From NCBI RefSeq assembly GCF_054482525.1, contig NZ_CM137006.1: a stretch of DNA of 64,000 bases. One strand, given 5' to 3'. The notes below the pieces were generated by a model, which had not been told where the DNA came from, did not search any database, and saw only the letters and a program-made list of their open reading frames with translations. Both the position numbers and the translations under genes were made by a program. Below are positions 59,187 through 61,064 of the stretch, piece by piece. The stretch's first letter is position 1; every line of letters begins with the position of its first letter.

Positions 59187-61064
59187 TTACGGTTCAGGGA
59201 TACAAGCCACATCGCCATATTGGGGATGCCGAATAATTGCCTGCGGATCAAGCGAGCGCGTCCTGTCCATTTGGATTAACCCGTTCTTCGCCATAACAAA
59301 TATCTTTCTACTATCCGCTGAAAAACGAAGATGATTAACGTAGCTGGCAGGATAAACGCCAACAATCTGCCCGGCATTAATATTGAGCAGGATGACATAA
59401 CCTTGCAGGCCATATGACACCAACGCTAAATACTGACCGTCCGGGCTAATACCCTCAACGGAATAAACGCTCCTGCTACACCATTGCGTCATAATGCTGG
59501 CTTGTTGATCCTCAGCTCTTATACGTGAAATCCCCTGGCTATCGGCAAAAATTACATCCCCGTTTTCAGGTCGAAAACGCATCGCCGATATCGTTCCACG
59601 CGCATCACTAGCCGGATAGCTTTCTTTCTGATGCGTGATGGTATTGATCCGTACAATGTCACCTCTGACCATACCGGGTATCAACAATGTTTTTTCATCC
59701 GGGGAAAGTGCCATAACCCAGGCACCTGGTTTACCGCTCGTCCCCGTCCCGTCGTATTTCTCCATCGGGATATCCGCCACATGCTGATAAGTCACCAGAT
59801 CAATGGCTGACACACTATTACTGGTGCGATTAATCACCCAGGCTTTTGTGCCATCGCGCGAGAGGATAAGGCTGTCAGGATGTGCGCCGGTGGTAATCGA
59901 CTGAATAATCTCCCCCGTCGCCACGTTAATGACCGATAACGCATTCGCTTCAAATGACGTCGCATAAAGTAACGTTTCATCCGGGCTTAACGCCAGCGCT
60001 CTGACACCCTGATCTTTACAGCCACCACAATGTTTGAGTGACTTTTCTTTCGCTATAGGCGCTGTAAAGGTATGCAGGATTTTCTTTTGTCCGAGGTCGA
60101 AAACAACAATGCTGTTGGTGTTTTCAATTGCGGCATACAACGTATTACCATCCCGACTGATCGCCATATCATGGATATCGGCAATCTCAGCGAGTAAATC
60201 ACCACTGGCCTGCTCACGACTTACCGGAGCGGATAATGTTTCCCTGAGGGCGTTGCGCTCCTCCACTAACTGCTGCTTTTTTTGTCGTCGCTCTTGTTCA
60301 ATCTCCTGCGGATAAAACTCTTCACGCAGGCTTTGCCTGACCTGTAAAACTGATTCATCAATCTGCTGCTGCACAAGCCAGATAGCCCCGGTCGGAAGAA
60401 GAGTGACCGCAACAATAATCCCGCCTTCCGTAACGAATCGGTTCTGCCCAACTAAACGCGCGCTCAGCCAACCCAACGCGCCACCCGCAATCAGGCCGCC
60501 AATGTGGCAAGCGTTATCTATTCCTGTTTGCCGGGCACCGTACAACAGTGTCAGCGCCACCATACCCAACAGAGGAAATACTCGCCGCTGGTTTTTATGG
60601 TGTGTGCCCGCACCTGAAGCAAGCTGTGTTGCTATCGCAGCGCCAGCTATTCCCATAATCGCCCCGGATGCCCCAACGCTGATGACTATCTGCTCACTTT
60701 CGCGTAACGCATAACAGGCACTGATTAGCCCACCAAAGACGCCAGAGAATAGCCAGACAATCAGGAGTCGCCATTTCCCCAGTATCCGTTCCGCCACTGC
60801 CCCCACCACCAGGAGTGCAAACATATTGATCAGCAAATGGGGAAAACTACTGTGCAGAAAGACACTGCTCAATAAGCGCCAGGATTCACCCGACAACGTG
60901 AGAGAAGCAACGTTAGCACCAAGATGGATGAGTGCGGATTGATCGACTTCTTCATAACTCATCCATTGTGCGAGATAACAAAATATCCCAACACAAAGCG
61001 CAAAAAGGATAAGAGTTATTGCGGGTAATTGAACATTTAACGGCTTAACCGAAGATGCAGACAT
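59187..61064 (-). CDS. Rhomboid-family intramembrane serine protease fused to a C-terminal 7-bladed YVTN-type beta-propeller domain
   Basis: 625-aa ORF. Rhomboid signatures: WR loop motif (ESWRLL), TM2 FLHSSFPHLLINMF, catalytic GASGAIMG (Ser ~133) and HIGGLIAG (His ~187); seven hydrophobic helices, then a coiled-coil-like charged linker (QEIEQERRQKKQQLVEERNALRE) and about seven repeats of the type LSPDxxxLYxxxxxxNxxSVIDxxT. Confidence 0.75.
   Translation of the reverse strand: MSASSVKPLNVQLPAITLILFALCVGIFCYLAQWMSYEEVDQSALIHLGANVASLTLSGESWRLLSSVFLHSSFPHLLINMFALLVVGAVAERILGKWRLLIVWLFSGVFGGLISACYALRESEQIVISVGASGAIMGIAGAAIATQLASGAGTHHKNQRRVFPLLGMVALTLLYGARQTGIDNACHIGGLIAGGALGWLSARLVGQNRFVTEGGIIVAVTLLPTGAIWLVQQQIDESVLQVRQSLREEFYPQEIEQERRQKKQQLVEERNALRETLSAPVSREQASGDLLAEIADIHDMAISRDGNTLYAAIENTNSIVVFDLGQKKILHTFTAPIAKEKSLKHCGGCKDQGVRALALSPDETLLYATSFEANALSVINVATGEIIQSITTGAHPDSLILSRDGTKAWVINRTSNSVSAIDLVTYQHVADIPMEKYDGTGTSGKPGAWVMALSPDEKTLLIPGMVRGDIVRINTITHQKESYPASDARGTISAMRFRPENGDVIFADSQGISRIRAEDQQASIMTQWCSRSVYSVEGISPDGQYLALVSYGLQGYVILLNINAGQIVGVYPASYVNHLRFSADSRKIFVMAKNGLIQMDRTRSLDPQAIIRHPQYGDVACIPEP

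Follow-up and report, generated by a model that had tools for sequence, protein, structure and literature searches.

The window analysed here, a stretch of 64,000 nucleotides from contig NZ_CM137006.1 of RefSeq assembly GCF_054482525.1, carries between lnt and gltI a gene that is almost certainly the Escherichia coli orthologue of Shigella sonnei Rhom7 and encodes a protein with the rhomboid catalytic mechanism. The window matches the genome of E. coli PCN033 (NZ_CP006632.1), a porcine extraintestinal pathogenic strain, at 100%, and the corresponding open reading frame (ORF) there, WP_001276778.1, bears the family-level RefSeq label "rhomboid family intramembrane serine protease". The explanation that we favour overall, with strong confidence that belongs mainly to the identity and the mechanism, is that of an ancestral, weakly expressed, fast-evolving and dispensable gene for a Rhom7 protease whose C-terminal β-propeller would serve as an exosite. 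The synteny at lnt-gltI and the ancestry of the gene, its fast evolution, the deletion shared with K-12 and the repeated frameshifts are what the present analysis adds.

Rhom7 of S. sonnei (SSON_0610, UniProt Q3Z4D6) was named after its seven predicted transmembrane domains (TMDs) (Liu et al. 2020, EMBO J 39:e102922, PMC7232013). BLASTP alignment of the window protein with the S. sonnei protein revealed 576 identical residues of 625 (92% over the full length, 49 substitutions, 1 gap). The sequence printed in Fig EV1 of Liu et al. likewise has 625 residues, ends in ...YGNVACIPEP and is collinear with the window protein to the last residue, and the catalytic residues carry the same numbers in both, Ser133 and His187. 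End-to-end collinearity together with this identity marks the window gene as the orthologue; the two proteins share length, catalytic dyad, the seven-helix prediction and the C-terminal domain, and differ by the substitutions and the host.

The published biochemistry of Rhom7 can thus be set beside the window protein. Liu et al. obtained seven TMDs with Phobius, found that a TatA-TMD reporter is cleaved by Rhom7, an active intramembrane protease, and showed that S133A and H187A each abolish its activity (PMC7232013). When expressed from a plasmid or over-expressed, Rhom7 cuts the TMDs of HybA, HybO and FdnH; FdnH is cut only when orphaned from FdnI, in a manner that depends on Pro259, and cleavage licenses further degradation of the substrate (PMC7232013). 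The PCN033 protein is predicted to perform Ser/His-dependent intramembrane proteolysis in the same way as this 92%-identical orthologue. The earlier note had not recognised the gene product as a characterised E. coli protein; since the activity, the dyad and the over-expression substrates of the orthologue were published in 2020, the protein is already known through Rhom7, and the idea that it is uncharacterised is not supported, which partly refutes the note on its own terms. For the C-terminal domain, Liu et al. propose regulation, citing the YqgP paper (PMC7232013). The word "propeller" has 0 occurrences in Liu et al. (PMC7232013) and is absent from a 2025 review that lists Rhom7, and a literature search combining rhomboid and β-propeller, with incomplete coverage of the literature, returned no paper on this bacterial domain combination. 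Domain databases already tag the C-terminal domain (Pfam lists), and its nature seems to be undiscussed in the searchable literature.

The catalytic core displays every rhomboid hallmark that had been quoted from the sequence, each at its expected place. Pfam Rhomboid PF01694 (MEROPS S54) matches residues 59-201 at E=4.8e-28, covering model positions 2-140 of 143 and establishing family membership, and the Haemophilus influenzae GlpG structure 2NR9 matches at E=7e-10. The AlphaFold2 model places the core transmembrane (TM) helices at residues 15-34, 62-95, 97-122, 132-149, 152-178 and 182-203. W62-R63 lies in the L1 loop after TM1; the TM2 motif FLHSSFPHLLINMF carries H71, H76 and N80 (HxxxxHxxxN); the nucleophile stands in the GASGA motif of TM4 (G131-A-S133-G134) and the histidine in HIGGLIAG of TM6 (H187/G190/G194). 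W62, R63, H76, N80, G131, S133, G134, H187, G190 and G194 are the same in all 16 homologues compared, at 25-57% identity, and the catalytic motifs are also invariant across 21 E. coli and Shigella alleles. Only 13 residues precede TM1, which leaves no room for a GlpG-like cytoplasmic domain. A topology of either 1+6 or 6+1 had been suggested; the architecture is 6+1, with the extra helix C-terminal, WR after TM1, Ser in TM4 and His in TM6, and the 1+6 option falls away.

Comparison with known rhomboids defines the position of this core. E. coli GlpG has the same catalytic fold and motifs, and the HybA and HybO substrates overlap with those of Rhom7 in S. sonnei. The relationship is distant only: E. 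coli GlpG chains match the window protein at E about 1e-3, and the GlpG equivalogs TIGR04239 and NF008155 score 40.3 bits against a cutoff of 250 and 35.1 against 335. Unlike Rhom7, GlpG has a cytoplasmic N-domain of ~90 aa, six TM helices and no periplasmic domain; it occurs in all E. coli, whereas Rhom7 occurs in about 60%. The rhombosortase family TIGR03902 remains below its threshold as well (43.2 bits, cutoff 84). Providencia stuartii AarA, an active 7-TM rhomboid that cleaves TatA, is about 30% identical to Rhom7 (PMC7232013); unlike Rhom7 it is 1+6, with its extra helix N-terminal, and has 281 aa and no periplasmic domain. The closest core relatives outside the family are GluP/YqgP-type rhomboids and Staphylococcus aureus ActH, which share the 6+1 topology and a C-terminal extracytoplasmic interaction domain; the GluP/YqgP-type proteins bear tetratricopeptide repeats (TPR) in place of the β-propeller, and YqgP carries in addition a cytosolic N-domain with a regulatory role, which is missing from Rhom7.

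Beyond the core, a seventh helix, a charged linker and a seven-bladed YVTN-type propeller had been proposed, and TIGR02276, AlphaFold2 and Foldseek agree on this arrangement. The stretch from residue 232 to 290 (59 residues) contains 9 K/R and 15 D/E and is modelled with helices at 237-250 and 253-272 at a predicted local distance difference test score (pLDDT) of about 65-80; V281, A286 and G288 at its end are invariant in the 16 homologues. The NCBIfam YVTN repeat TIGR02276 is matched in two stretches at 56 bits, above its cutoff of 27.85, and the archaeal YVTN propeller 1L0Q_A matches residues 355-434 repeatedly, with E=2e-24 by sequence. A search of residues 285-625 against 1.8 billion representative proteins retrieved thousands of proteins with YVTN repeats, whose alignments cover the same two blades (residues 356-436); most were giant multi-repeat YVTN proteins on blades 2-3, and no other fusion to a membrane protease was revealed among them. 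When blades 2 and 3 of the family were turned into a profile, it recovered blade 1 (E=5e-8) as well as blade 4 (E=2.5e-6); blades 5-7, too divergent in sequence, were not found convincingly. The AlphaFold2 model, built from a 16-sequence family alignment (mean pLDDT 80, predicted template modelling score (pTM) 0.59), shows 7 TM helices, the helical stalk and ~28 strands arranged as seven four-stranded sheets (289-600), with most propeller blocks at pLDDT 85-95. In the Foldseek search of the PDB, the top ranks all went to seven-bladed propellers (5C2V_B from hydrazine synthase beta, the YVTN propeller 1L0Q_A, G-beta and TLE1), with E near 1e-15 and TM-scores, normalised to the target, between 0.54 and 0.77. 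The evidence for a closed seven-bladed propeller of YVTN type thus comes from sequence for four blades and from the predicted fold for all seven.

The Methanosarcina mazei surface-layer (S-layer) YVTN propeller 1L0Q belongs to the same seven-bladed YVTN/lactonase-like class, and Rhom7 blades 2-3 align with it; 1L0Q, YncE and the hydrazine synthase beta propellers are soluble or surface-layer proteins and, unlike that of Rhom7, are not tethered to a protease. An enzymatic role as lactonase, YncE or hydrazine synthase was rejected, since all family scores lie far under their cutoffs (YncE 31.5 against 400, hydrazine synthase beta 42 against 560, 6-phosphogluconolactonase 12.6 against 370), and Pfam Lactonase and YNCE reach only E about 2e-4.

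In rhomboids, the L1 loop and the opening of the active site are extracytoplasmic, and TM6 ends on the cytoplasmic side. Positive residues of the window protein occur in loops 92-100, 146-165 and 200-213 (after TM2, TM4 and TM6), and L1 (34-62) has no K/R and 4 D/E. There are exactly four cysteines in the C-terminal domain (C346, C349, C529 and C621), kept in most homologues and invariant in the 21 E. coli and Shigella alleles. An extracytoplasmic, periplasmic location of the C-terminal domain, as had been suggested earlier, fits both this positive-inside loop pattern and the two conserved Cys pairs, and the four cysteines would fit two periplasmic disulfides, for which the pairing is inferred.

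Propellers in general are protein-interaction modules. Taken with the features above, the protein is a 6+1-TM rhomboid with a Ser133/His187 dyad, in which TM7 would take the C-terminus across the inner membrane, followed by a charged helical stalk of about 55 residues and a seven-bladed YVTN propeller in the periplasm. The orthologue has been shown to cut proline-destabilised C-terminal TM anchors of Tat-exported Fe-S subunits (HybA, HybO, FdnH) that are unprotected by their complex. We hypothesize that the propeller could be a periplasmic protein-binding exosite above the active site, which would dock the globular periplasmic domains of tail-anchored clients or recruit a periplasmic partner, and would set substrate choice rather than catalysis. 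This role is proposed tentatively, with somewhat less than even confidence; it is the simplest one because every known substrate of Rhom7 bears a large folded domain in the periplasm, directly over the TM that is cut.

Several observations weigh against this explanation. Deletion of the C-terminal domain, or of TM7 together with it, leaves cleavage of the artificial TatA-TMD substrate intact; cleavage of natural substrates was seen with plasmid expression only, the native amount of Rhom7 being too small for cleavage to be detected; and loss of both glpG and rhom7 gave no phenotype in growth, Biolog, oxidative stress or the type III secretion system (PMC7232013). The contexts of several members of the wider family share nothing, so that no conserved neighbour gene hints at a partner or substrate. 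The geometry of the stalk and between the domains is only moderately confident in the model (pLDDT about 65-70, pTM 0.59), and frequent loss and pseudogenisation mean that whatever Rhom7 does is dispensable in many lineages. An exosite would nevertheless be compatible with a C-terminal domain that is unneeded for a small artificial reporter in excess.

The propeller might instead be an adaptor or regulator that recruits a DegP/DegQ/Prc-like protease or a chaperone to finish the ectodomain, or that senses a periplasmic cue gating the protease. This proposal draws on analogy with Bacillus subtilis YqgP, an adaptor for FtsH, and with the rhomboid-TPR protein ActH, which works with the amidase LytH. 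The nearest core relatives, at 33-44% core identity, are 6+1 rhomboids of the GluP/YqgP type with C-terminal TPR, which suggests that extracytoplasmic interaction modules have been swapped, and both the dispensability of the C-terminal domain for catalysis and the suggestion of regulation by Liu et al. (PMC7232013) point the same way. We consider it unlikely, given that no partner gene is conserved alongside rhom7 and that the adaptor function of YqgP sits in its cytosolic N-domain, for which the 13 residues ahead of TM1 of Rhom7 offer no counterpart. A bolder variant, in which the propeller would be a specific receptor coupling an extracytoplasmic event (binding of a folded Tat-exported domain, an envelope-stress ligand or an incoming membrane toxin) to intramembrane cleavage, is in our estimate quite improbable. 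If true, it would mean a regulated-proteolysis or defence pathway of non-K-12 E. coli that was missed since K-12 deleted the gene, and the fast evolution in TM2 and blades 4-5 would be co-evolution with a variable target and not relaxed constraint.

To assess the distribution of the gene, complete E. coli genomes were searched. The rhom7 coding sequence (CDS) was detected at a coverage of at least 80% in 3231 of 5426 genomes (~60%), including UTI89 and the sequence type ST131 strain EC958, and was absent from 2189 (about 40%); with broken copies taken into account, about half of E. coli strains, K-12 among them, have lost or broken the gene. The edges of the presence/absence block were defined by blastn of an empty locus (YJ4) and a K-12-like locus (HT-946) against the window. 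K-12 MG1655 carries the same empty allele and, nearer gltI (about 100 bp upstream of it), IS5D/insH3. The earlier note had placed an insertion sequence (IS), IS5, at this position in K-12: the element is indeed present and the gene absent, but IS5 as the cause of the absence was rejected, because the older deletion allele occurs in strains without IS5 and the element sits at a separate point near gltI; IS5 in K-12 is thus a later, separate insertion. The left edge of the block falls inside the last lnt codons (59049-59054); Lnt has 513 aa in PCN033 and UTI89 and 512 aa in K-12 and some rhom7-positive strains (O111:H8, MY732), and the lnt-rhom7 junction itself differs among rhom7-positive strains.

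The same place between lnt and gltI holds the gene in Klebsiella aerogenes, E. whittamii, a further Escherichia species and another enteric bacterium. Because the site is the same in K. aerogenes and other Escherichia, rhom7 is ancestral, as had been proposed against a recent acquisition, and the empty allele is therefore a deletion. A scan of 100,044 representative genomes with a five-sequence enterobacterial alignment gave matches in E. whittamii, in Escherichia sp. MOD1-EC7003 and in two E. coli-like contigs from metagenome-assembled genomes, and in nothing else, so that the Rhom7 clade is rare outside Escherichia; neither K. aerogenes nor E. coli, the type strain of which, K-12, lacks rhom7, yielded a match through its representative genome. 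Outside Enterobacteriaceae, the same full-length architecture appears in scattered Proteobacteria at 23-31% identity, e.g., in Paraburkholderia and Phytopseudomonas.

The rate of evolution of Rhom7 was compared with that of the flanking proteins YbeZ, YbeY, CorC, Lnt, GltI and GltJ. Between PCN033 and K. aerogenes and the other enteric bacterium, Rhom7 identity is 49-53% as against 83-96% for the flanking proteins; with E. whittamii and Escherichia sp. the values are 90-92% and 97-100%. Within E. coli, nucleotide identity to PCN033 is 93.7-96.2% for rhom7 and 97.1-98.3% for corC-lnt. The ratio of nonsynonymous to synonymous substitution rates (dN/dS; Nei-Gojobori, four intact alleles) is 0.24 for rhom7 (core 0.28, stalk 0.11, propeller 0.24); at a similar dS, lnt has a ratio of 0.06, gltI one of 0.04 and corC one of 0, and the rhom7 value is 4-7 times those of lnt and gltI. 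Intact alleles are under purifying selection, in the protease core and the propeller alike. Polymorphic sites among the 21 alleles are densest in TM2 (24%), blades 4-5 (18-22%) and TM7 (17%). The patches of polymorphism comprise residues 62-95 (60780-60881) and 437-530 (59475-59756), and almost no variation falls in TM6, the CxxC loop or blade 1. TM2 and TM5 have been proposed as the lateral gate of rhomboids.

The reading frame is broken repeatedly. Annotated frameshifts were found in six of 38 evenly spaced full-CDS alleles, among the 40 matches listed, or roughly one in six. Each comes from the loss of a single base, at nt 261, at 782/789 (in three strains), at 1062 or at 1497, and frameshifts affect rhom7 at no fewer than five different positions. 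The A7 tract in the stalk-coding part may simply be a hotspot of mutation, or else an on/off site that is prone to slippage. In one lineage, with 640 database members, the gene is split at nt 583, and AFDB50 holds several broken E. coli fragments. In another E. coli allele (L024, positions 1-2845), a Mu-like Mom gene and genes for IS3-family transposases have taken the place of the 5' part of rhom7, leaving a 489-aa ORF from M137; with these genes abutting the truncated copy, the locus has also been an insertion site for prophage or IS.

These data bear on the view that rhom7 in E. coli is a functionless ancestral relic decaying under relaxed selection, with the PCN033 copy as a not-yet-broken remnant. 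The absence from 2189 of 5426 genomes, the frameshifts in six of 38 sampled alleles, the split and the prophage- or IS-truncated alleles and the raised dN/dS relative to lnt and gltI would all be expected of a relic, as would the lack of a phenotype of the S. sonnei mutant and the very low native expression (PMC7232013). We nevertheless judge it rather doubtful: a dN/dS of 0.24 is far under 1 in both domains, the catalytic residues and the four C-terminal cysteines are invariant in 21 alleles and kept in homologues at 25-57% identity, the frame has stayed open at this locus since Escherichia and Klebsiella diverged, and the S. sonnei protein is enzymatically active (PMC7232013). That intact copies are under purifying selection speaks for some function having been retained, and the frequent loss argues that this function is conditional or redundant with GlpG. 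Decay in some lineages would not exclude an exosite or adaptor role of the propeller.

The fast evolution, the presence/absence polymorphism and the concentration of variation in TM2 and blades 4-5 could also reflect an arms race, in which Rhom7 would confer immunity or defence against membrane-inserting toxins (type VI secretion system (T6SS) effectors, colicins) or phage, the propeller capturing the target in the periplasm and the rhomboid cutting its TM. A 28%-identical paralogue lies within a T6SS cluster, next to an effector of the BTH_I2691/VasX type, a DUF4123 adaptor and TM proteins in tandem that resemble immunity proteins, and the same arrangement occurs in Citrobacter farmeri (GCA_023686585.1). 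The order in this cluster (L012, 890-10119) is effector and two tandem ExIF-family TM proteins, paralogue, DUF4123 adaptor and then a 2-TM protein of 392 aa. Only one close-knit clade, however, has this T6SS context; around the relatives that are 50% and 36% identical, one of them from Serratia, the neighbours are sugar-metabolism and unrelated genes, the E. coli/Klebsiella clade is flanked by housekeeping genes, and the overall dN/dS bears no sign of positive selection. A search of PADLOC-DB returned 0 families at E<=0.01 for the Rhom7 protein and for the T6SS-embedded paralogue. A T6SS or immunity link as a general property of the family was rejected, since it is lost in the relatives at 50% and 36% identity, and a defence role of Rhom7 itself appears extremely improbable.

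The features of the locus are collected in the table below. The GC content had been described as host-like, which holds for the overall value of 0.497; GC content at third codon positions (GC3) is 0.494, lower than in the flanking genes (0.56-0.65). The rhom7-gltI intergenic region (61065-61518) is AT-rich (GC 0.405 versus 0.52 for the whole window), and a scan of it found no sigma-70 consensus match on the rhom7 strand 5' of the gene, which is consistent with the very low native Rhom7 expression that has been published. Weak expression of rhom7 is thus suggested by the lack of a sigma-70 match upstream, the low GC3 and the level of endogenous Rhom7, too low for detectable cleavage. The GC-rich hairpin between lnt and rhom7, judged from its consensus match only, is likely a bidirectional terminator between the convergent genes. 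A 16-bp perfect inverted repeat whose loop is 3 nt long (CTGGCCTGCAAAATTG-CAT-CAATTTTGCAGGCCAG; 59068-59102) lies 14 bp past the lnt stop; it has no T-run behind it and lies within the block found only in rhom7-positive alleles. The small RNA sroC (Rfam RF00369, 174.8 bits; 62423-62585, plus strand) lies between gltI and gltJ, as in the K-12 annotation, and is ordinary.

Table. Coordinates of rhom7, its encoded domains and the surrounding elements in the window.
Feature	Position	Strand	Basis or remark
lnt	57513-59054	+	convergent with rhom7
Presence/absence block; ~154 bp of unrelated sequence resembling repetitive extragenic palindromic (REP) elements instead in "empty" alleles	59049..61273		blastn and annotations
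GC-rich hairpin, T-run on the plus strand and A-run on the opposite side (likely bidirectional terminator)	59159..59179		terminator scan and sequence; consensus match only
rhom7 orthologue CDS, 625 aa and stop	59187..61064	-	ORF listing, ATG to stop, uninterrupted
Seven-bladed YVTN-type β-propeller (supported), aa 291-625	59190..60194	-	TIGR02276, 1L0Q_A, AlphaFold2, Foldseek
C346-G-G-C349 motif, loop between blades 1 and 2	60018..60029	-	Cys positions
Charged helical stalk/linker, aa 234-290, closing with family-conserved PVSxExAxG	60195..60365	-	composition, model
A7 homopolymer, stalk-coding (codons RRQKKQQ; T7 on the plus strand)	60277..60283	-	1-bp deletions at nt 782/789 in LY180, PM7 and 11A20CPO008
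Seventh TM helix, aa 209-233, leading the chain to the periplasmic side	60366..60440	-	hydropathy peak; model helix; Phobius 7 TMDs for the orthologue
Rhomboid core, aa 1-203: short N-terminus, TM1-TM6, L1 loop with W62-R63	60456..61064	-	Pfam, AlphaFold2 model, motifs
Catalytic His187 codon, TM6	60504..60506	-	position; invariant in 16 homologues
Catalytic Ser133 codon, TM4	60666..60668	-	position; invariant in 16 homologues
Shine-Dalgarno-like AAGGAAG, 9 nt 5' of the rhom7 ATG	61074..61080	-	direct reading of the sequence
gltI	61519-62427	+	divergent from rhom7

The E. coli rhomboid work that was found, including a 2025 study of GlpG in uropathogenic E. coli, makes no mention of a second rhomboid. 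Yet ~60% of complete E. coli genomes carry rhom7, with roughly one in six sampled copies frameshifted, and the overlap of Rhom7 and GlpG substrates in S. sonnei suggests that redundancy could mask glpG phenotypes in clinical strains. Domain boundaries, conserved cysteines, natural knock-out alleles and fast-evolving patches are now mapped for Rhom7 and can serve work on the contribution of a periplasmic β-propeller to an intramembrane protease.

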